NCBI GenBank assembly: GCA_018302815.1
Contig: JAGVZE010000010.1
Span: forward strand, 3,523 to 67,522
Reading direction: 5' to 3'
Origin: Candidatus Woesearchaeota archaeon
Lineage (GTDB): Archaea; Nanobdellota; Nanobdellia; Woesearchaeales; ARS49
Length of the DNA stretch: 64,000 nt
This document shows, piece by piece, positions 2,076 to 51,070 of this stretch. Numbering within the stretch: the stretch's first letter is position 1; every line of letters begins with the position of its first letter. The position numbers and the translations under genes are program-made. The notes beneath the pieces were generated by a model that saw only the letters and a program-made list of their open reading frames with translations, was not told the origin of the DNA and searched no databases.

Positions 2076-2364
2076 GGCACCTCGTATTTGGCTTTTGTGT
2101 TGTGGTCAGCAAGAAATGAGGCAAGGATGAATTTTGTGCACAGAGCACAATGTCTTCGAAGAGCGCCCTGTGGCGCGTGCACGTTCCGATTAAATAATGA
2201 AGATGCTATGGTAGAAAGATTTAGGTAACAACCCATCATGAATTGTGTTTTGTTCCCAGCTTATCACTGAAAATAATCAAGCGAGTCAACCTCTTAAACT
2301 TTTGTGTTCACTGCTCAGTGTTTTTTACGCAATTAATTTAAAGAGCCTCATAGAAATAAAGAGC

Positions 2365-3042
2365 ATGAGACTTGGCGTGTTATATTCCGGAGGAAAAGAC
2401 TCGACGCTCGCGTTGATGAAAGCAAAAGAGCACCACGACGTCGTATGTCTAATAAGCATAATTTCTGAAAATAAAGAGAGCTACATGTTCCACACGCCAA
2501 ATATCGACGTGACAGAGCTGCAGGCGCAGGCTATGGGGCTTGCGCTTGTGCGCGTTACGACAAAAGGAGAGAAAGAAGCAGAACTCAAAGATTTGAAAAA
2601 AGCAATAAAAGACGCCATTAAACGGCATAAAATTGAGGGAATAGTCACAGGCGCTGTGCGTTCCACATACCAAGCGAGCAGAATACAAAAAATATGCCAA
2701 GAGCTCAAGCTCTGGGTCTTCAACCCGCTCTGGCTTAAAGACCAAGTCGAGCTGTTAACCGAAATTAGAGCATCCGGAATCAAAGCGATAATAGGCGGCG
2801 TATTCGCAGAAGCGCTGGACGAAAGCTTCCTTGGAAAAGACATAAGCACAGTCATACCGCAACTGGTTAAAATCGCAGGCGAACATCACATCAACCCAGC
2901 AGGAGAAGGCGGAGAAATAGAGACAACAACACTTGACGCTCCAGTTTTCAAGAAAAAAATAGTCATCGAGGAGTTTGAGAAGCGCTTCGAGAAAAATAGC
3001 GGCACGTTCATCATCAAAAAAGCGAGGCTTGCCGAGAAATGA
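2365..3042 (+). CDS. PP-loop ATP pyrophosphatase of the MJ0570/Dph6 (diphthine-ammonia ligase) family
   Basis: Starts MRLGVLYSGGKDSTLAL (SGGKDS PP-loop); ~225 aa typical of the archaeal MJ0570/Dph6 family. The upstream in-frame extension from 2245 was rejected as the N-terminus. Confidence 0.6.
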   Translation: MRLGVLYSGGKDSTLALMKAKEHHDVVCLISIISENKESYMFHTPNIDVTELQAQAMGLALVRVTTKGEKEAELKDLKKAIKDAIKRHKIEGIVTGAVRSTYQASRIQKICQELKLWVFNPLWLKDQVELLTEIRASGIKAIIGGVFAEALDESFLGKDISTVIPQLVKIAGEHHINPAGEGGEIETTTLDAPVFKKKIVIEEFEKRFEKNSGTFIIKKARLAEK

Positions 3043-5650: not shown

Positions 5651-5678
5651 ATAAATGTGTTCTCATCAATCAGTAGTT

Positions 5679-6089
5679 ATGAAATGGATAATCGCACTCC
5701 TAGTACTATTGGTTGCATGTTCAACCGTAGAGCAGACCGTTATGTCAAAACCAGCAGTACAGCCTGAACAGACAATCGTTCAGCAAGCGCCGGCAGAACA
5801 GCAAATTCTTGAAGCAGAAGTAAAAGCGCCTGTTGAGACCGCCCCCGCCCAACTTGAGCCAACAGAACAAGTCCAATTAACTTGCGATGACCTTTGCCAG
5901 CAAGACTGCGAAAGAGACGCGCAAAACGCCTGCAAACAACAAGAACGCTCAGATTGCAAATCTCAGTGCGGAGACATCATAGACCCGTCAGCTTGCAGCC
6001 AAGCCTGCTCGTTCCTACACCAAAGCGCCACCTGCAAAACCCAATTCGAACAATTCTGCAAGGCAAAATGTGTTGAACGGTGCAATTAA
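5679..6089 (+). CDS. secreted cysteine-rich lipoprotein (14 Cys in the last ~70 aa)
   Basis: MKWIIALLVLLVACST is a lipoprotein-type signal. A Gln/Pro/Glu-rich linker is followed by a Cys-dense C-terminal domain (CDDLCQQDCERDAQNACKQ...CVERCN). Confidence 0.5.
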   Translation: MKWIIALLVLLVACSTVEQTVMSKPAVQPEQTIVQQAPAEQQILEAEVKAPVETAPAQLEPTEQVQLTCDDLCQQDCERDAQNACKQQERSDCKSQCGDIIDPSACSQACSFLHQSATCKTQFEQFCKAKCVERCN

Positions 6090-6092
6090 GCA

Positions 6093-6806
6093 ATGGATGT
6101 CGAGCTACGCGATTTAGAGCGTAAAGTCCGCGAAGGAAACACCGACGCACTCGCACCATACGCACAAGCATGCGTTCGAGCGCAAAAGAACATGTACGAG
6201 TTTCTTCCGTTATTTGTTGAGAACAGACGGAATGCCGGCTTAAGGAGAGTGCTTAATGACGCAGGGTTGCTTGGGATGCAGCAGTATGGCGATATGGCTT
6301 TGCTTGAGCTAGATGATCGAGTCACACCCTCTGGAAACGTCATAGCGTTCAATCAGTTGATGAATAACTACCCTGACGCAACTGAGTTTTTTACATCGAG
6401 CGAATCTGTTCGCGTAACGAAAACTCCCAACAATCATCTCAAATATACCTTCATGAAGCCCAACGGTGCTTGCAAACAGGAAATTGATCTGTCGGAAGGC
6501 ACCATACGTGATTCTCCGAATCCGAAGTTAATAGAATTCATCTTCGGCAATCTGACCAACACATATCTCAGCAGAGGACGAATCATCCAAAATCGCAACT
6601 ATCGATTTGTTCCCAACTTCGGAGGATCCGCATTCGAATCGGTTCTTCTTCAGCTTAACTTATCATTCATACTACAATTCAATCCTCCGAATTATACATT
6701 GAATATTACGGCCAGGAACACTCAGAACTCAGCTCCAAGAGTTTCCGGAGTCACCCGCCAAGCCGCAGACCTTTTGAGCCCGCCATCCGAGGCAACAAAT
6801 GGATGA
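6093..6806 (+). CDS. unrecognised-family protein, paralog A (conserved N-domain, variable body, LLSPPS tail)
   Basis: The first ~95 aa are near-identical to the next gene (TDALAPYAQACVRAQ, YEFLPLFVENRRNA). C-terminal tail is VTRQAADLLSPPSEATNG. No signal peptide or TM segment. Confidence 0.55.
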   Translation: MDVELRDLERKVREGNTDALAPYAQACVRAQKNMYEFLPLFVENRRNAGLRRVLNDAGLLGMQQYGDMALLELDDRVTPSGNVIAFNQLMNNYPDATEFFTSSESVRVTKTPNNHLKYTFMKPNGACKQEIDLSEGTIRDSPNPKLIEFIFGNLTNTYLSRGRIIQNRNYRFVPNFGGSAFESVLLQLNLSFILQFNPPNYTLNITARNTQNSAPRVSGVTRQAADLLSPPSEATNG

Positions 6807-7458
6807 CGATATCCGCACATTAGAGCGAAGAGTACGTCAAGGAGAAACTGACGCACTCGCACCATACGCACAAGCATGCGTTCGAGCCCAAAGAAATGTG
6901 TATGAGTTTCTGCCATTGTTTGTAGAAAATAGAAGGAATGCCGAATTGAGAAAAGTGCTCAACGACACAGGATTGCTCAGGATGAGGCACTATGGAAGCT
7001 ACGACTTGCTCCAAGCAGACGATTATGTCCTGCCGACAGGGAATGTGCTTGCGTTCAATGACTTGATGGATGAGACTCCGCGATTCGAGGATGAGTTCAT
7101 TCTTGCAGAACAGAACAACATAACTACCACAATATTGACAATTAAAAAAGGCAACATGCCTCAAGTCAGCATAGATCTAAGTACAAACGGCCGTCGGTTT
7201 CTTCCAGAAGACAAAAACACCGTTTTTTCAGTCCTGTTTGGCAACCTTTCATCAGCATTTACAGAAATGGAGCCAAACAAACCCAGTTATTGGTCCGGTG
7301 ACCAACATATTGTGATAAGGTACCATAATGGAACAATAAGTGAATTACAATCTATTAGTTACCAAGATCTTTCACGAACACACAGCCGCATTCAGCACAG
7401 TTGCATCTGGGGCGTTCCACGTCACGCAGTCAAACTGCTCAGCCCACCATCTCAATGA
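6799..7458 (+). CDS. unrecognised-family protein, paralog B
   Basis: Tandem paralog of 6093..6806, sharing the N-domain and the tail VPRHAVKLLSPPSQ. Start ATGGATGA overlaps the upstream stop by 8 nt. Confidence 0.55.
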   Translation: MDDDIRTLERRVRQGETDALAPYAQACVRAQRNVYEFLPLFVENRRNAELRKVLNDTGLLRMRHYGSYDLLQADDYVLPTGNVLAFNDLMDETPRFEDEFILAEQNNITTTILTIKKGNMPQVSIDLSTNGRRFLPEDKNTVFSVLFGNLSSAFTEMEPNKPSYWSGDQHIVIRYHNGTISELQSISYQDLSRTHSRIQHSCIWGVPRHAVKLLSPPSQ

Positions 7459-7460
7459 AT

Positions 7461-8813
7461 CTAGAACTTCATCTGAGGACCGGCTTTCCTGCCGAGCTTC
7501 TTCATAAGCTTCTCAGGAGATTCGCCCTTTAACATCTTTATCATCTTCTTCGACTGCTTATACTGCTTAATAAGATCGCGAATGTCGCTTGTTGAGACTC
7601 CGGAACCTTTGCTGATACGCTCAATGCGTTGGGCGTCGAGCATCTCAGGGTCCTCTAATTCAGCTTTTGTCATACTGTTCATCGCGTGCTTCCACTTCTT
7701 GAGCTTGCCTTCCTGCACCTGAAGCGCTTCTTTTGGCATCGAAATGTTGCCAAAGCCAGGAATCATTTCCAAAACTTTGCCCAATGGGCCCATCTTCGAC
7801 ATCGCTTCCATCTGACTATAGAGGTCGATTAAATTGAATTCGCCCTTGAGAAGCTTTTTTTCTAGGTCTTTTGCTTCGTCTTCAGTTATGGCCTCTTTTG
7901 CCTTTTCAAGGAGCGCTTCGAGATCGCCCATGCCAAGCAAACGGCCGACAAAACCCTTCGGATTGAACTGCTCGAAATCATCGACACGCTCACCGACACC
8001 AATGAACTTGATAGGAGCTCCAGTCACAGCGCACGCGCTCAAAGCGCCACCGCCCTTCGCAGTACCATCCATCTTTGTGACGATAACGCCAGTGATAGCT
8101 CCTGCAGCGTGGAATGCAGAGGCTTGCTGCTGAGCGGCCTGACCGATATCAGCGGAAATCACAAGCAAAGCCTCATTGACATTCGCAGCCTCGTGAACAT
8201 TCTTGAGCTCTGCTATCAAATCAGCAGAAAGAGCGTCCCTTCCAGCAGTATCGATTATTAACAAGTCAAACTTCTTGAACTCAGGCTCGAAATGCCTGTA
8301 AATCTTGATAGGGTCTTTCTCGTCCTTTAAAATGAAGACTTGCGCATTAATCGCTTTTCCAACTTGCGAGAGTTGGTCCATCGCGGCAGGACGGTGCACG
8401 TCAAGACCTAGCAAAGCAACCTTTTTGCCTCGCTTCATAAAATATTTCGCGAGCTTTGCGGCAGTCGTGGTTTTACCTGAACCGAAAAGACCGATAAGCA
8501 TTATTTTAGAAAGACCTTTCTCTTCGATCTTAAGCTCTGACTTGTCACCGCCCAAAAACTTTGTCAATTCCTCATAAACGATGTTGACCAAATGCTCGCG
8601 CTTTGTAAGCGCGCCAGGAGTTTGCTCCTTTGTAATCCTGTCCTTGATTTTTTGCGTGAGGTCAAAAACAAGCTTCACGTTGACGTCTGATTGAAGAAGA
8701 GCGCGCTGGATGTCTTTTATAAGCTCATTGATGAGTTTTTCATCTACAAAAAGCGACTTCGCAATCTTTTGCAGAGTTCCTTTAAGACCCTCTGAAAGCT
8801 TCTCTAATACCAT
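7461..8813 (-). CDS. srp54: signal recognition particle protein SRP54
   Basis: N domain MVLEKLSEGLKGTLQKI is archaeal-style. G domain has GLFGSGKTTTAAKLAKY, DTAGR and TKMDG. Met-rich M domain at the C-terminus. Confidence 0.95.
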   Translation of the reverse strand: MVLEKLSEGLKGTLQKIAKSLFVDEKLINELIKDIQRALLQSDVNVKLVFDLTQKIKDRITKEQTPGALTKREHLVNIVYEELTKFLGGDKSELKIEEKGLSKIMLIGLFGSGKTTTAAKLAKYFMKRGKKVALLGLDVHRPAAMDQLSQVGKAINAQVFILKDEKDPIKIYRHFEPEFKKFDLLIIDTAGRDALSADLIAELKNVHEAANVNEALLVISADIGQAAQQQASAFHAAGAITGVIVTKMDGTAKGGGALSACAVTGAPIKFIGVGERVDDFEQFNPKGFVGRLLGMGDLEALLEKAKEAITEDEAKDLEKKLLKGEFNLIDLYSQMEAMSKMGPLGKVLEMIPGFGNISMPKEALQVQEGKLKKWKHAMNSMTKAELEDPEMLDAQRIERISKGSGVSTSDIRDLIKQYKQSKKMIKMLKGESPEKLMKKLGRKAGPQMKF

Positions 8814-11976: not shown

Positions 11977-12066
11977 GGGGCTGTCTGCTAGGGGTAGGCT
12001 ACACCCTTGGGGCGACGTAAATGTCTCAAAATGGGTGTGACGCGAGTTCAATTCTCGCCAGTCCCA
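11977..12066 (+). tRNA. tRNA with putative ~19-nt intron (tentatively tRNA-Pro GGG)
   Basis: Manual fold. Acceptor ggggctg/cagtccc pairs 7/7 with one G-U. T-arm gcgag-ttcaatt-ctcgc has a consensus T54T55C56R57A58 loop. Anticodon stem caccc/gggtg. D-stem is only 3 bp with a GG-containing loop. 90 nt total implies an intron. Anticodon GGG assumes the canonical 37/38 intron position. Confidence 0.55.
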
Positions 12067-16871: not shown

Positions 16872-17855
16872 ATGTTAAAAAAAATATCAACATACTTGAA
16901 AAAAGTGATGAAACTGCAGTTGAGTGCACCTGCCCACGTGAATATAGAGATTTCAACCGCCTGCAATCTGAAATGCAAGATGTGCAAACGAGAGAAATTC
17001 GATTTCGGGAATAAACTGATGCCATTTGAGACATTCACCGCAATAATGGAAAAACTTCCCAAAGGAGTCGAAATAATATCTTTCGGAGGATATGGCGAGA
17101 TGACGCTCCACCCCCGATTCTTTGATATGGTAAAATATGCAAAAGAAAAAGGATACCGAACAGAAACAACATCAAATGGAACTTTATTTTCAACTGATGA
17201 AAAAATTCACAAGCTTCTTGAAAGCAAACTTGACACCATACGAATATCAGTGGATCACATACGCGAACCGCTCGAAGAAAATGATGCAGGACACGTATTC
17301 TCTTCGACACTATTGCAAAATCTGAAAAGGCTTAACGAACTTAGACGCGAAACAAAAAAATCCATGAAATTATGCATAAACACAGTAGTTCACGCAGGAA
17401 ACATCGATGAACTTATCGAGCTAGTGAAATATTTTGAAGATATAGGCTTTGATATGGTCGAGTTCATAAGACTTGACACTAATATGAACAATGCGCAACG
17501 AACACTCCAAATACAAAAAGAAAAAGAAACATACACAACAATATTGAAAATGAATAAAAGAATAAAAGTCATAACTCCTTTAAACAGATTCGCAAAATGG
17601 CGAAAGTACTATGCATCCAACAACACATTCTGCATATTCCTTCATCAATGCGCACACATAAGAATCAACGGACAAGTCACACCTTGCGCATTTGGATTCG
17701 CCATGCACGATTTTGGCAACATACACGAGCAAAGCTTGACGCAAATCTGGAACAATGATGAATTCTTGCGCATCAGGAAAAACCCCGAGAATCCAACCTG
17801 CCAAAACTGCAAAATATTCAAATGGCCAGCCAATATTTTGCCCACAAAACAATAG
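16872..17855 (+). CDS. radical SAM protein with C-terminal SPASM-like Cys cluster
   Basis: NIEISTACNLKCKMCKRE (CxxxCxxC). C-terminal CAFGFAMHDFGN...CQNCKIF cysteine cluster typical of a SPASM/twitch domain. Confidence 0.7.
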   Translation: MLKKISTYLKKVMKLQLSAPAHVNIEISTACNLKCKMCKREKFDFGNKLMPFETFTAIMEKLPKGVEIISFGGYGEMTLHPRFFDMVKYAKEKGYRTETTSNGTLFSTDEKIHKLLESKLDTIRISVDHIREPLEENDAGHVFSSTLLQNLKRLNELRRETKKSMKLCINTVVHAGNIDELIELVKYFEDIGFDMVEFIRLDTNMNNAQRTLQIQKEKETYTTILKMNKRIKVITPLNRFAKWRKYYASNNTFCIFLHQCAHIRINGQVTPCAFGFAMHDFGNIHEQSLTQIWNNDEFLRIRKNPENPTCQNCKIFKWPANILPTKQ

Positions 17856-33674: not shown

Positions 33675-34414
33675 AACAAGTAATAGAAGCAACAAATGTA
33701 TTCAAAAAATACCCAATAGAGTTGATGAGAAAAAAAAGAAGGCAATTCTTTAAAATATTATTCGATGGATTTCCAAAAATAGAGCATGTACAAGCGTTGA
33801 ACGGTGTTAGTTTGCGCATACAACAAGGAGAATGCGTTGGCATAATAGGTCCGAACGGGAGCGGCAAATCGACTCTCCTTAGCATAATCGCAGGAATCCT
33901 GAAAGCAGACAGCGGCAACATAAAGACAAAAGGGAAAATAGTATCATTGTTCGACACTAAACTCGGAAGACAGGAAATGAGCGCAGATACAAATCGCCGC
34001 TTTCTTTGCGGACTTTTTGGAATGCCGCGAAAACAGATCAGCAAAACGAAAAGCGCGGTGTTCAAGACAGCAGGATTATCAAATTTCGCGGATACACCGA
34101 TGATAAAATACTCGCGCGGAATGAGGGATAGACTGATGTTATCTTTATCGCTCAGCGTCAAACCGGACATACTTCTCCTCGATGAAGTACTTTCAGAATC
34201 AGATGAAGCATTCAGGTCGAAATTCGCAAAAGCCATAAGAAAATACGCTTCTTCGGGAAAAACAGTCATCATGATAAGCCACGAGCTCGCGCTCGTAGAG
34301 AAAATGTGCGCAAGGACAATCTGGCTCGATAAAGGCACCATACGAATGGACGCAAACACAGCGAAAGTCTTAAAAACCTACAGGGAGGCGTCTTGCAATG
34401 CAACAAAAATATGA
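33671..34414 (+). CDS. ABC transporter ATP-binding protein (Wzt/TagH-like)
   Basis: Walker A GIIGPNGSGKSTLL, signature YSRGMRDRL, Walker B ILLLDEVLS. Confidence 0.85.
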   Translation: MKQVIEATNVFKKYPIELMRKKRRQFFKILFDGFPKIEHVQALNGVSLRIQQGECVGIIGPNGSGKSTLLSIIAGILKADSGNIKTKGKIVSLFDTKLGRQEMSADTNRRFLCGLFGMPRKQISKTKSAVFKTAGLSNFADTPMIKYSRGMRDRLMLSLSLSVKPDILLLDEVLSESDEAFRSKFAKAIRKYASSGKTVIMISHELALVEKMCARTIWLDKGTIRMDANTAKVLKTYREASCNATKI

Positions 34415-35795
34415 CCACGTGCTATTCATATCGATGGACACGTGCAGGGCGGACCATCTTGGCTGCTACGGACATTCAAGGAAAACCACGCCAATACTGT
34501 CAAAATTCTGCGAAGAAAACATAATATTTGAGAAATCGTTTTCATCGAGCGTGCCAACATTACCCTCACACACAACAGTATTTACCTCGCTCTATCAAGG
34601 CGTCCATGGCGCAGAAGTGACACTCTCTGCGCCCATGCCTGAAAAACTCACCACGATAGCTGAAGTCCTGAAACGGCAAGGCCACATAACCGCAGCATTC
34701 CACAGCGGCGCCCAATTAAGCGAGATATGGAATGTCTTCAAAGGATTCGACATCGTTAATTATGCGTCCACACAATCAATAAAAGAAACAGCGGGATTTT
34801 ACAAAGAGTTCATAGAAGCCAACAAAGACAAGAAGACATTCGGATTCGTCCACGGATTGGATATGCACTTCCCACACTACAAACCAGGCCTGTTCTCTGA
34901 TGAATTAAAAGTCGATAAACAAAGAGTGATAGACAAAATCAACGATTGCGACCACGACCTGACTGGTGAAGGCACAAAAACAGAAGTCTGCGCACTATAC
35001 GATGACAGCATAGTATTTTTTGACCGGCACATAGGCACGATATTTGACAAGCTAAAAGAGTTAGGTATATACGATAAGACAATCATAGTAATCTTCGGAG
35101 ATCATGGCGAAGAATTCGGCGAACGATCAAGAATGGCCGCGCACCACAAGAACCTTTTTGATGAACTTATAAGAGTCCCATTCCTACTTCGGATACCCGG
35201 ATTAGAACCTAAAAAAATCAGAACGAACGTGCGGCTCATAGATATAATGCCGACAGTGCTGGCCGCCATGGGAATCAATGAACAAATAATCATGCAAGGA
35301 GAGAATCTGCTGCCGACAATCCTTGGAACGAAAAGCATAGACCTTCCTGTTTTCACAGAATACCTGCACCGTAATTCATATGCAATCAGCATCAAAACAA
35401 GCTTTTTGCAATTAATCTGTGAAAGGGAAAGCACTTTTTTGAGAAAGCTCATATTGCGCTATAGATCCATAAGAAAACACGCATCTAAAGAACCGAGCTT
35501 ATTGCGTAGATTGGCAGTCATGACAAAACTACTCATCATAAAATCAAAATCATTCACCGAATTTGACACTATAACATTCTGTGATGCGCGATCGGAAGAA
35601 AGAAACAAACCGCGCCTCATAGTCGCCAGATTAGGAAAATATGAGCGAAGAATAGTGAACAGACTTCTTGAGTTGATAAGCAAGCAAATGGAAGAGAACA
35701 AGCTGCTGCAACAAGAACTCACCGGAGGAGTAAAAACAACAGTGGAACTTCGAGGAGAAATGAAAAAAAGCCTTGAAGAGTTAAACTACCTATGA
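34398..35795 (+). CDS. sulfatase-family (alkaline phosphatase superfamily) enzyme, Thr-type nucleophile motif
   Basis: SMDTCRADHLGCYGH N-terminus; TLPSHTTVFTS sits at the position of the sulfatase C/S-x-P-x-R motif; GDHGEEFGE metal-binding block. Confidence 0.65.
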   Translation: MQQKYDHVLFISMDTCRADHLGCYGHSRKTTPILSKFCEENIIFEKSFSSSVPTLPSHTTVFTSLYQGVHGAEVTLSAPMPEKLTTIAEVLKRQGHITAAFHSGAQLSEIWNVFKGFDIVNYASTQSIKETAGFYKEFIEANKDKKTFGFVHGLDMHFPHYKPGLFSDELKVDKQRVIDKINDCDHDLTGEGTKTEVCALYDDSIVFFDRHIGTIFDKLKELGIYDKTIIVIFGDHGEEFGERSRMAAHHKNLFDELIRVPFLLRIPGLEPKKIRTNVRLIDIMPTVLAAMGINEQIIMQGENLLPTILGTKSIDLPVFTEYLHRNSYAISIKTSFLQLICERESTFLRKLILRYRSIRKHASKEPSLLRRLAVMTKLLIIKSKSFTEFDTITFCDARSEERNKPRLIVARLGKYERRIVNRLLELISKQMEENKLLQQELTGGVKTTVELRGEMKKSLEELNYL

Positions 35796-37225
35796 ACACT
35801 CCCCCTAAGAACGTGATATACATATCTATTGATTGCGGAAGACGCGATCATTTCAGCTGTTATGGCTATCCTGATACTACGACACCGAACATAGATCGGT
35901 TCAGCAAAAAAAGCACACTATTCAGGAACGCGTTCACACAGGCGCCATCAACACTTCCATCACACTCGACGCTATTCACATCAACATACCCCTCAGTGCA
36001 CGAGGCGGAAATATCAACAGGTAAAGCCCTGCCAAAAACAATCCCGACCATCGCGTCAATACTGCAACACGCAGGTTATGCGACCGCATCTTTCAACGGA
36101 GGAGCGCAACTCGACCCCTCATGGAAACTTGACCGAGGTTTTGACACGTACCAAACAGGGAAAAGCTTGGTAAATAATATCGAACTTGCGATCGACTGGG
36201 TGAAAGATAATAAGTCAACGCAGTTCTTCTTATTCCTGCACGGTTATGACGTACATAAACGCCTAAAACTCATGGGTCCGCGTTTTCTCGCGCAATTCGA
36301 TAATGCAGAACAAGCAGAGAAAGAAAGGGCAGCATTGAATGAGCGCCTCAAAAAAAATCCGACCGCATCTGAAGAAGACAAGCGAAAATACCTGCTTCTT
36401 TATGATGATAATTTAGAACTTGTGGATACAGCTCTGGGTCACCTGTTTACTTTTTTGGATGAGATTGACCTATCTGAAAACACCATCATCGTCATCTTTG
36501 CAGACCATGGAGAGGAACTTGGCGAGCGTTCAAGTGTGGCTTTGCACTCGCACACGCTCTATGATGAACTGTTACGCGTCCCCTTGCTATTGAAAATACC
36601 CGGAACAGAACAAAAAGAGATCGATAATCCTGTCGGACTTATCGACGTCACACCAACCATACTTGAAACGTTGGGAATAGATATTCCACAGATAATGCAA
36701 GGAAAAAGCGTCCTTCCAATAATGGCCGGCAAAGAAACACAAGACCGCACCATCTTTAGCGAATTCCATTATCCGCATTTTGAAAAAATGTGCGTACGCA
36801 CAAGACACCATAAATTGATAGAGACGCTACACACGAATTACGGCGAAGCTATGCTGAAAAACAAAGCCTTCAAAGGCTCCCAGTATTCAAAAATACAAAA
36901 AATCAAGGAATTCTCAAATAGACCGGCATACCTTCTTGCAAACGCAATTTATTTCATACTCAAAAGAATAGGATTATGCTCTCTTTGGATTCGGCTTTTT
37001 GGTCTTTTCAAGACGTATGAATTCTACGATCTTAAAATCGATCCGAAAGAGGAGACCAATATCTACTATGACGACCCTGCGAAAGCAAGCAGCCACCTGA
37101 AACTTCTTGAGAAATTATGCAAAATAAACCAGCAGAGAAGAGACGTTAAAGATTCAACACCCCGAATCGTTCAAATGAGTGAAAAATTAAAAAAACGGCT
37201 TAGCGAGCTCGGATACATTCAATAA
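35792..37225 (+). CDS. sulfatase-family (alkaline phosphatase superfamily) enzyme, paralog
   Basis: SIDCGRRDHFSCYGY; TLPSHSTLFTS; ADHGEELGE; overlaps the upstream paralog by 4 nt. Confidence 0.65.
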   Translation: MNTPPKNVIYISIDCGRRDHFSCYGYPDTTTPNIDRFSKKSTLFRNAFTQAPSTLPSHSTLFTSTYPSVHEAEISTGKALPKTIPTIASILQHAGYATASFNGGAQLDPSWKLDRGFDTYQTGKSLVNNIELAIDWVKDNKSTQFFLFLHGYDVHKRLKLMGPRFLAQFDNAEQAEKERAALNERLKKNPTASEEDKRKYLLLYDDNLELVDTALGHLFTFLDEIDLSENTIIVIFADHGEELGERSSVALHSHTLYDELLRVPLLLKIPGTEQKEIDNPVGLIDVTPTILETLGIDIPQIMQGKSVLPIMAGKETQDRTIFSEFHYPHFEKMCVRTRHHKLIETLHTNYGEAMLKNKAFKGSQYSKIQKIKEFSNRPAYLLANAIYFILKRIGLCSLWIRLFGLFKTYEFYDLKIDPKEETNIYYDDPAKASSHLKLLEKLCKINQQRRDVKDSTPRIVQMSEKLKKRLSELGYIQ

Positions 37226-38519: not shown

Positions 38520-39662
38520 ATGAGCCCAGTAGTAAAGACACAATACCACTCATGGTGCACAGGAAACTTATCAGAAGGATGCATCCAGTGCGTCAACGGC
38601 CGAAAACTAGTACTTTTCATCACAGGGCTTTGCGCGCAGCGATGCTGGTACTGCCCTGTAAGCGAACAAAAATTCGGAGAAGATGTCGCTTTTGCCAACG
38701 AATGGAAAATCAGCGACCCGAAAAATCCTGTTGAATTATTCGAAGAAGCGCGGCTAACTAACGCGACAGGAGCCGGAATAACAGGCGGAGACCCCCTCGT
38801 TCTAACAGAACGGTGCGTTGAATATATCAAACTTCTAAAAAAACGATTCGGCAAAGAATTCCACATACACCTATACACTCCACTAAAACTAGTCACACAA
38901 GAACGCCTCAAAAAACTATACGACGCAGGACTTGATGAAATAAGATTTCACCCCAATATCGAAGACAAAACCTTGTGGGACAGGCTTAATCTCGCAAAAC
39001 AATTCAAATGGAAAATTGGAATAGAAATACCAGTCATACCTTTCCTTGAAAAAGAGATGAAAGAACTCATAGATTACGCAAAAGGCAAGATTGACTTCAT
39101 CAATTTGAACGAACTAGAACGCTCAGACACCCAAACAAGCCATTACAAAATCGATGAGAGAAACTTGAAGCAGAAAGACGCAATAAGTTACGGCGTGAAA
39201 GGCAGCAAAGAACTCGCATTAAAACTATTGAAATACGCGCAAAGCAAAGGACTCGCCGCGCACTTTTGCACTGCAAAACTAAAAGATTCCGTGCAGATGA
39301 AAAACAGGTTACAGATACGCGCCAAGAATGCGAAGTACGATTTTGATGAAATGACTGAAGAGGGCCTGCTTCTAAGGGGATGCGCATATTTGAAACAGCT
39401 CGCCCCAGGAGCAGGATACCGCGAGAAAATAAAGCAAGCGGATAAACAAAAATTATTGCGCGAATTAGAGATTATCAGAAAAACAGTACTCTCCAAATGG
39501 GAAACTCCCATTGAAATAGACAGCGAAAAACTGCGCATCATACTTCCAATAGAATTCGTCAAAAAGCATAAGCTAGCGCTTAAAAAAATAGGAGTAATAC
39601 TCGCAATAGTAGAAGAATATCCTACCGCTGACGCCATAGAAATGACTGTCGACTTTCTTTGA
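38520..39662 (+). CDS. radical SAM domain protein
   Basis: ITGLCAQRCWYCP (CxxxCxxC) plus an upstream CxxC; 380 aa. Confidence 0.65.
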   Translation: MSPVVKTQYHSWCTGNLSEGCIQCVNGRKLVLFITGLCAQRCWYCPVSEQKFGEDVAFANEWKISDPKNPVELFEEARLTNATGAGITGGDPLVLTERCVEYIKLLKKRFGKEFHIHLYTPLKLVTQERLKKLYDAGLDEIRFHPNIEDKTLWDRLNLAKQFKWKIGIEIPVIPFLEKEMKELIDYAKGKIDFINLNELERSDTQTSHYKIDERNLKQKDAISYGVKGSKELALKLLKYAQSKGLAAHFCTAKLKDSVQMKNRLQIRAKNAKYDFDEMTEEGLLLRGCAYLKQLAPGAGYREKIKQADKQKLLRELEIIRKTVLSKWETPIEIDSEKLRIILPIEFVKKHKLALKKIGVILAIVEEYPTADAIEMTVDFL

Positions 39663-49576: not shown

Positions 49577-51070
49577 ATGCATAATACTGAAAGCCCTCAC
49601 CAAGAAACAGAAGGAATCACCATATTTCCATCATTCGAACCCGGACAAATAATCAACGGGTATGAAATCATCAAACCTCTGCGAAGAGGCGGAATGGGAA
49701 TGCCCTACTTATCCCGAAACTGCATACCGGGCCTAGAGGACATGCAGGCAGTTCTAAAATTCCCCGCCATACCTGCTAATGAAAGCAGAGAACAATTCAT
49801 GCGCCGCTGGCTACACGAAGTGAAGGGACTCCTAGCAATAGACCATCCCAACGTGGTCAAAATCTATGACGCCCAAATCCACCAAGGAATGCCATACATA
49901 CGCATGGAATACGCGAAAGGCCATGAATTATCCTGGATGCTAGCATACCAAGCGATACCAGAACCGCACGTAATAAACTGCATGACGATAGCAAAAGGAC
50001 TACTGAGCGCGATAGCAGACATACACCAAAGAGGGATAACTCACCGAGACGTCAAGCCCCAGAACATCATAATCGATCATAACCTAACTCCAAAATTGAT
50101 AGATTTTGGAATCGTGAAATTGCAAACAGAAGACCTTACACGTGACGGAGAATTCTTAGGAACAATCGGTTACATGTCGCCAGAGGTGCTTGAAGAAATA
50201 GAAGACCCAAGACGAGACGTATGGGCCGCAGGCATGGCACTCTACTCAATGCTGACTTACTATGAACCCGCACGCGATCCAAAGAAAGGCAAAACTGATT
50301 TTGAACAAATGGATTATTTCAGGAGATGGCAGCCAGAATCGCTTGAATTAAAAATCGGCCATCAGGCAAAGTCAATAGACTCCCTCTTAAAAGAAATGCT
50401 CAAACAAGACTACGAAAAAAGGATTCACGCCAAAGACGCCTACGAACTCATATGCTCCATAATTCCAGACCTTAGCGCCAATTCAAAAACCACACTTGTG
50501 CCTCAACAGCTCGGGACTCTCGAACTATTCATAAGAGATGCCACGCACATGAGCGACATAGAATTCGTCTCGAAATATGGCCACGCGATATTAATGAGAG
50601 CAGACACTTACCAACATACAACACGAGCTCCCCTGGGCGCGAGCAGATGGGTTGATCAATGCTTGGATACACTTTTGTTCTCAACTTCAAAGAAGCACAT
50701 GCAAGTAATCGGAAGAAACCCTGAAGCAGACATTAGAATAAACCACAAATATGTGTCAAACAAGCACGCAGCAATCATACACAAAGACAATAATTACTCG
50801 ATACAAGATCTCCTTTCAAAGAACGGCACACGCGTGGGCGACCTTCCAAAGACCGCATCAGAAATATACCTCAACCCCGGAGACATCATAGCATTCGGAC
50901 ATCCATCAGTACAATATGTCTTTGAAACCACGCTTTCAATTCGCACTAAAATCCAATCAGCGCAGGAAACAAACAACCACGGCAGTATCCAAACCAAGAC
51001 CCAAAGGCGAATATGCCCAGGAACAACGAAAAAAAGCAACGGGCAGTCAATTCAGCACGACTTAGACTGA
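49577..51070 (+). CDS. Ser/Thr protein kinase with C-terminal FHA domain
   Basis: HRDVKPQNIII catalytic loop, DFG, GTIGYMSPE. C-terminal VIGRNPEADIRINHKYVSNKHAAI...SKNGTRV is an FHA signature. Confidence 0.8.
   Translation: MHNTESPHQETEGITIFPSFEPGQIINGYEIIKPLRRGGMGMPYLSRNCIPGLEDMQAVLKFPAIPANESREQFMRRWLHEVKGLLAIDHPNVVKIYDAQIHQGMPYIRMEYAKGHELSWMLAYQAIPEPHVINCMTIAKGLLSAIADIHQRGITHRDVKPQNIIIDHNLTPKLIDFGIVKLQTEDLTRDGEFLGTIGYMSPEVLEEIEDPRRDVWAAGMALYSMLTYYEPARDPKKGKTDFEQMDYFRRWQPESLELKIGHQAKSIDSLLKEMLKQDYEKRIHAKDAYELICSIIPDLSANSKTTLVPQQLGTLELFIRDATHMSDIEFVSKYGHAILMRADTYQHTTRAPLGASRWVDQCLDTLLFSTSKKHMQVIGRNPEADIRINHKYVSNKHAAIIHKDNNYSIQDLLSKNGTRVGDLPKTASEIYLNPGDIIAFGHPSVQYVFETTLSIRTKIQSAQETNNHGSIQTKTQRRICPGTTKKSNGQSIQHDLD

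Follow-up and report, generated by a model that had tools for sequence, protein, structure and literature searches.

Organization of the locus

This study concerns two adjacent genes, here called A and B, in a 64,000-nucleotide (nt) stretch of a Candidatus Woesearchaeota archaeon genome (assembly GCA_018302815.1, contig JAGVZE010000010.1, positions 3,523 to 67,522 of the forward strand), the whole of which is referred to as the window. An earlier note, made from the sequence alone, had described the pair as tandem paralogs with a conserved N-terminal domain, a hypervariable body and a conserved C-terminal tail, and had pointed to a 38-nt block that is identical in both. The genes, their parts and their direct neighbours are as follows, with lengths in amino acids (aa) and model confidence as the per-residue predicted local distance difference test score (pLDDT).

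5655-6089, plus strand: Cys-rich lipoprotein gene with the lipobox LLVAC and 14 cysteines, C-terminal half; first gene of an apparent operon
6093-6806, plus strand: gene A, 237 aa; GenBank MBS3148237.1, annotated as a hypothetical protein of Candidatus Woesearchaeota archaeon
6093-6380, plus strand: N-domain of A, codons 1-96; conserved and predicted to be helical, with pLDDT 83-95 to residue 90
6144-6181, plus strand: 38-nt block, copy in A, codons 18-30, DALAPYAQACVRA; identical to 6850-6887; putative footprint of a conversion tract
6381-6743, plus strand: body of A, residues 97-217; fast-evolving, alpha/beta, with the family-wide motif FGNL at 6543-6554
6744-6791, plus strand: C-terminal strand and helix of A, GVTRQAADLLSPPS; conserved, modelled with pLDDT ~90
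6799-7458, plus strand: gene B, 219 aa; MBS3148238.1, hypothetical protein, paralog of A
6850-6887, plus strand: 38-nt block, second copy, in B
7087-7407, plus strand: body of B, residues 97-203; fast-evolving, with FGNL at 7237-7248
7408-7455, plus strand: C-terminal strand and helix of B, GVPRHAVKLLSPPSQ; conserved
7461-8813: SRP54 gene, converging on gene B

The two genes are co-directional and overlap by 8 nt (ATGGATGA), with the ATG of B lying within the final codons of A, and a GAGG Shine-Dalgarno-like motif is found at 6789-6792, 6 nt before this ATG. The adjacency and overlap described in the earlier note were confirmed, as was the Cys-rich lipoprotein gene immediately upstream, which ends 3 nt before gene A. 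Neither protein contains a transmembrane segment or signal peptide (maximum KD19 1.27 and 0.62), again in agreement with that note.

Parts of the proteins and predicted fold

We observed that one BLASTP alignment spans the full length of A and B, with 43% identity and E=1e-53, and that the identity is distributed very unevenly along it: 48/60 at residues 1-60, 18/36 at residues 61-96, about 22% in the body and 10/16 in the tail. The N-terminal ~96 residues are identical at 67 of 96 positions, so the proposed common N-terminal domain of ~95 aa holds, and the shared C-terminal tail, GV[TP]R..A..LLSPPS, was equally recovered. The earlier description of the ~110 aa in between as unalignable was overstated, as the proteins align from end to end and the motifs IDLS and FGNL are kept in both. 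Judged from the alignment, the body is fast-evolving but homologous, and no swapped cassette. The body of A includes an Asn-rich stretch (residues 160-215, window 6570-6740), and asparagine makes up 16% of this body against 3.9% of the window proteins, an enrichment that B does not display.

Structure models were built with AlphaFold2 from a six-sequence alignment. The model of A reached an overall pLDDT of 72 and a predicted template modelling score (pTM) of 0.75, with 83-95 in the N-domain to residue 90, 42-75 in the body and about 90 in the tail, and that of B an overall pLDDT of 61, which makes it usable only in the N-domain and tail; the N-domain scored 83-95 in both models. In these models the N-domain forms stacked antiparallel helical hairpins, and it can be called TPR-like in this sense. 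Its closest known counterparts are TPR-like helical domains, such as the C-terminal domain of the chaperedoxin CnoX/YbbN (7ywy_a, 3qdn_A). No TPR, PPR or Sel1 sequence model of Pfam matched the N-domain at E<=1, the only PDB match to it was a designer PPR protein at E=0.12, and Foldseek against PDB gave no match at E<=0.001.

With regard to the tail, the earlier note had considered it a conserved terminal tag. An archaeosortase or C-terminal sorting signal consists of a motif followed by a transmembrane helix and then a basic tail, and no such signal was found around LLSPPS, as the proteins end 1-5 residues past the motif and have no hydrophobic segment. The terminal strand and helix (GVPR..LLSPP) are confidently modelled, and on the models they are probably part of the fold and not a tag.

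Family size, relatives and genomic context

Word-indexed and profile searches of 5.8 billion proteins, together with an exhaustive phmmer search against 1.84 billion representatives, yielded a family of just five clusters and disclosed no distant relatives. No further loci came up when GTDB genomes, JGI metagenomes and IMG/VR were scanned for the pattern, and a profile search of six-frame open reading frames (ORFs) in the window and in 80 related SRP54 loci disclosed no copies beyond A, B and the known relatives. Scans of Pfam, NCBIfam, PADLOC and PHROGs gave no family match for A or B, and a sequence search of PDB with four single proteins and one profile gave nothing significant. The absence of recognisable homology stated in the earlier note is borne out in all these collections, and since no family matched, membership of an ordinary enzyme family, which the earlier note had named as evidence that would overturn its description, was not found.

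The most informative relative comes from locus L001 of a related organism, which has 72% nt identity to the window in the upstream genes and 86% in SRP54, and which displays the same order of Ada-like gene, lipoprotein gene, A-like gene and SRP54. Its A-like protein, P0002, is 43% identical to A, and B is replaced at 2353-3003 by an unrelated HTH_8 (Fis-type) gene of 216 aa that is ATGA-coupled to the A-like gene. A more distant member, P0005 (277 aa; loci L003 and L004), has the N-domain, the GNL motif and a GVP...LPPEP tail in common with A and B, and in both loci an ATGA-coupled paralog directly follows its gene. The body motifs IDLS and FGNL recur in P0002 and P0005.

An HTH_8 homolog was also noticed at the same junction in locus L021 (7349-8017), which has no gene of the A family. 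The lipoprotein gene and gene A stand in one frame, separated by TAA and one codon (window 6087-6095), and the same spacing occurs in L001 (1658-1666). This is probably mere tight operon packing, though stop read-through between the two genes, if it occurs, would yield a lipid-anchored fusion.

The lipoprotein gene adjoins SRP54 in 14 related Woesearchaeales loci, with homologs 41-48% identical; the two abut directly in 6 of the 14, and the remaining 8 hold unrelated inserts of 0.4-4.9 kb between them (loci L005-L021). As the contents of this junction vary among Woesearchaeales, the A/B pair sits in a spot of gene turnover. To judge from their ORF translations, the inserts encode small Cys-rich proteins as well as two larger products of 334 aa and 730 aa, which may be Q-salvage-like and kinase-like, respectively, among others. 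The SRP54 protein of the window is 81-88% identical to the closest proteins from metagenome-assembled genomes of Woesearchaeota and Nanoarchaeia.

Gene conversion at the 5' ends

The non-synonymous (dN) and synonymous (dS) divergence between A and B differs strongly along the genes. In codons 1-60, dN is 0.12 and dS is 1.0, and beyond them dN rises to 0.49 in codons 61-96 and 1.02 in the body, with dS saturated in both, which indicates that the duplication is old. On these substitution patterns A and B are real genes, with an N-domain under strong purifying selection.

The 38-nt block is 100% identical between 6144-6181 and 6850-6887, as had been stated, and these are its only two occurrences in the window. 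Outside the block, positions with identical residues use the same codon in 23 of 51 cases, and inside it 12 consecutive codons are identical. When synonymous states were shuffled with the amino-acid pattern held fixed, the chance of such identity was p=0.0014. Codon bias was tried as the source of the identity and rejected, as the codon usage of the genome predicts the 12 identical codons with a probability of only ~1.5e-6 and the codons are not especially preferred. Because of this permutation result and the insufficiency of codon usage, the identity of the block exceeds chance.

The relationship of A, B and the A-like gene of L001 changes along the genes. Site support for grouping A with B, A with the L001 gene, and B with the L001 gene was 30:14:14 in codons 1-60, 26:41:26 in codons 97-160 and 66:74:53 in codons 97-233, and the incongruence between codons 1-60 and the whole body (codons 97-233) gave p=0.016 in a Fisher test. 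Since the support shifts in this manner, the genes have a mosaic history, with a 5' end that clusters according to genome and a body that follows orthology.

Direct evidence of exchange comes from L085, a 969-bp short-read contig from a sample (ERZ4903072) in which a locus of the window type (L091) is also present. Over its B allele and SRP54 this contig is 91% identical to the window. At nt 15-129 of the B allele, 18 of the 20 diagnostic sites that set it apart from window B have the window A base (by our own binomial estimate, at least 18 of 20 at one third each would arise by chance at ~2e-7), and past nt 129 nearly all diagnostic sites are of B type. The A-type tract of ~100 nt spans the 38-nt block, and both of its switch points fall outside the block. 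The flanks are of B type, and upstream lies the 3' end of A with the ATGGATAA overlap. L085 is not explained by a simple switch of the assembly within the repeat, because the tract ends beyond the block and the flanks are of B type. No recent conversion was seen in the distant pair of L003, which shows 52% nt identity and no identical run longer than 9 nt.

The 38-nt block is thus best explained by gene conversion that exchanged sequence between A and B at their 5' ends, and it is most likely the footprint of a short conversion tract. The recent gene conversion that the earlier note had suggested is supported both by the A-type tract in L085 and by codons 1-60, which group A with B.

Further variation was noticed among strains. 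In L085 1-99, the 75 nt that lie 5' of the A/B junction could not be aligned to window A, although the whole of the sequence after it is 91% identical; this stretch belongs either to a body of A that differs drastically between the strains or to another gene, the A-type gene upstream of B being represented by 91 nt in this contig. B alleles from other samples (P0004, P0011 and P0012) combine segments of the window type with segments of the L085 type, a mosaic that suggests homologous recombination among strains that occur together, though P0004 and P0011 may be assembly chimeras and P0004 carries a frameshift. P0001, P0004 and P0011, entries of a read-level catalogue with no recorded contig (looked up for P0001 and P0004), were not relied on. 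L089, considered as a longer variant of B, was rejected because the extra length is a scaffold gap of Ns.

Proposed account of the gene pair

With reference to these results, we favour with moderate confidence the account that A and B are old tandem paralogs that have undergone conversion at their 5' ends and that combine a constant N-domain module with divergent recognition bodies; the descriptive part of this account is much firmer than the functional one. The pair stems from the old duplication in tandem of an orphan gene that is lineage-restricted in Woesearchaeales (DPANN archaea), and would be co-transcribed and translationally coupled downstream of the lipoprotein gene. Each protein is predicted to be soluble, with a TPR-like helical N-domain of ~90 residues, a fast-evolving alpha/beta body and a conserved terminal strand and helix. 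The 5' ends exchange sequence by short-tract gene conversion, which keeps the N-domains alike as the bodies diverge. The TPR-like N-domain, possibly together with the tail, may serve as a constant docking or dimerisation module, and the bodies may be divergent recognition modules. The coupling would give co-expression, and the two proteins may either form a complex or be alternative adaptors.

Several points weigh against this account. The idea of docking and recognition draws solely on architecture, conservation pattern and coupling. In L001 a single copy is followed by an HTH_8 gene, so that a heteromer of the two paralogs cannot be obligatory. The three-taxon incongruence is modest (p=0.016), and the models of the bodies have low confidence (pLDDT 30-75). 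An assembly chimera in L085 is unlikely, as two switches away from the repeat would be needed, yet it is conceivable.

The pair resembles other tandem paralogs that evolve in concert through intergenic gene conversion, with which it shares neighbouring duplicates, a mosaic history and one strain that carries a tract. It differs from the general case in that conversion is here limited to about the first 130 nt of paralogs that are otherwise saturated.

Alternative explanations

In one alternative, the body would have a ligand-binding, C-type-lectin-like fold akin to that of AvpA, the variable protein of diversity-generating retroelements (DGRs) in Nanoarchaeota, and A and B would be DGR-type binding proteins whose retroelement is lost or acts from a distance and which now diversify by duplication and recombination. 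From residue 60 onwards the predicted order of strand-helix-strand-helix, further strands and a conserved final strand is compatible with a C-type-lectin fold, in our own reading of the secondary structure. The Asn-rich body of A also agrees with this alternative, as does the report that three AvpA homologues lie outside DGRs (PMC5006420). Nevertheless, no RVT family was found in a Pfam scan of 30 window ORFs (131-572 aa), nor any reverse transcriptase in the precomputed Pfam marks within 10 kb on either side of gene A, and no template/variable repeat exists in the 64 kb, where the sole repeat of at least 30 nt touching 6093-7458 is the 5' duplication of A and B. Foldseek against PDB does not list AvpA among its matches, no sequence similarity to 5ioo appeared even at E<=10 (four single queries and one profile), the AvpA-aligned part of model A has a pLDDT of 42-75, and model B is too poor for comparison. 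Moreover, each of the 17 contigs found encodes one and the same A protein, so that hypermutation is not ongoing.

A DGR target was accordingly rejected for this locus, there being no reverse transcriptase in the ORFs and Pfam marks scanned and no template repeat in the 64 kb, and no retroelement encoded on this contig is considered to target A or B. Compared with AvpA and other DGR variable proteins of C-type-lectin fold (PDB 5ioo; PMC5006420), the pair has no reverse transcriptase, template repeat, adenine-directed variation or sequence similarity, and AvpA, in our reading of its structure description (PMC5006420), does not have a TPR-like N-domain as A and B do. We consider the relationship to AvpA unlikely, though worth keeping in view; if this weak structural link holds, it would tie binding proteins targeted by retroelements to relatives in which ordinary recombination produces the variation. 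Rather improbable in our judgement is the extended form, in which A and B would found a new family of DPANN binding proteins, whose AvpA-related, C-type-lectin-like body owes its diversity to duplication, to the replacement of alleles or cassettes and to gene conversion, without a retroelement, and whose TPR-like N-domain is held constant by concerted evolution. If true, this would mean that episymbiotic archaea can arrive at variable recognition proteins by a route that needs no retroelement.

The earlier note had likened the pair to polymorphic effector/immunity or cassette-type variable systems, where C-terminal modules can be swapped behind a constant N-terminal delivery domain. The layout of a constant N-domain and a divergent body fits such a system, and so do the 75 nt upstream of B in L085 that defy alignment beside a 91%-identical flank, and the gene turnover at the lipoprotein/SRP54 junction in related genomes. 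The scans of Pfam, NCBIfam, PADLOC and PHROGs, however, matched no toxin, immunity, secretion or defence family; the proteins carry no signal peptide or transmembrane segment; there are only two copies, with no orphan modules in the window and the 80 related loci; A and B are homologous over their whole length, tail included; and the family comprises merely five clusters worldwide. The likeness was not borne out by family matches, secretion signals or orphan cassettes, and we regard it as very improbable. A toxin/immunity pair is unlikely because A and B are full-length homologs of each other, and we conclude that they are not such a pair. PE/PPE-type pairs and polymorphic toxin systems show a superficial likeness in their conserved helical N-terminus, variable remainder and adjacent co-expressed genes, but A and B have no homology to them, no secretion system and no toxin domain, and the partners are paralogs.

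As for the 38-nt block, the earlier note had offered as the other explanation a nucleotide-level element with a function within the coding sequence; candidates for such an element would be RNA structures and sites of binding or recombination. The perfect identity of the block where synonymous divergence elsewhere is near saturation would agree with it. The L001 ortholog, however, has 8 substitutions in the block and the L085 allele has 2, the RNA fold z-scores on both strands range from -1.6 to +0.2 and are not significant, no Rfam match lies at the block, and the further recurrence of the core that a recombination site might display was not seen, as the 64-kb window holds no third copy beyond the A/B pair. 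We therefore hold this explanation to be highly improbable. An assembly artefact from a collapsed or chimeric repeat, for which just the presence of a repeat speaks, can be practically dismissed, because independent contigs from several samples carry the same sequence: L086 and L087, an ENA contig of 76.5 kb and a JGI contig of 11.3 kb from different sources, match the window at 100% identity over 8.7 kb, and across the A/B pair identity is at least 99% in a further seven contigs, which stem from other samples and assemblers.

Other features of the window

Elsewhere, the window holds two tandem sulfatase genes (34398-37225), a radical-SAM/SPASM gene (16872-17855) and a second radical-SAM gene (38520-39662), within a large glycosyltransferase-rich region of a small DPANN genome; the radical-SAM genes could be sulfatase maturases. 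The sole Rfam match in the window is a tRNA at 11977-12066, which measures 90 nt for a model of 71 positions and probably contains an intron. Again, a Ser/Thr protein kinase with a C-terminal FHA domain is encoded at 49577-51070.

Significance

DPANN archaea carry many fast-evolving proteins of unassigned role that may mediate host dependence. Genes A and B, as old paralogs under 5' gene conversion, belong to a new and very rare orphan family with ordinary evolutionary behaviour, and the pair is best seen as well-characterised hypothetical proteins and not as a new system. This study adds to the DPANN archaea a small and cleanly delimited family that joins a constant helical module to a rapidly changing body, and it documents, for an uncultivated archaeon, that tandem paralogs exchange short tracts by gene conversion.
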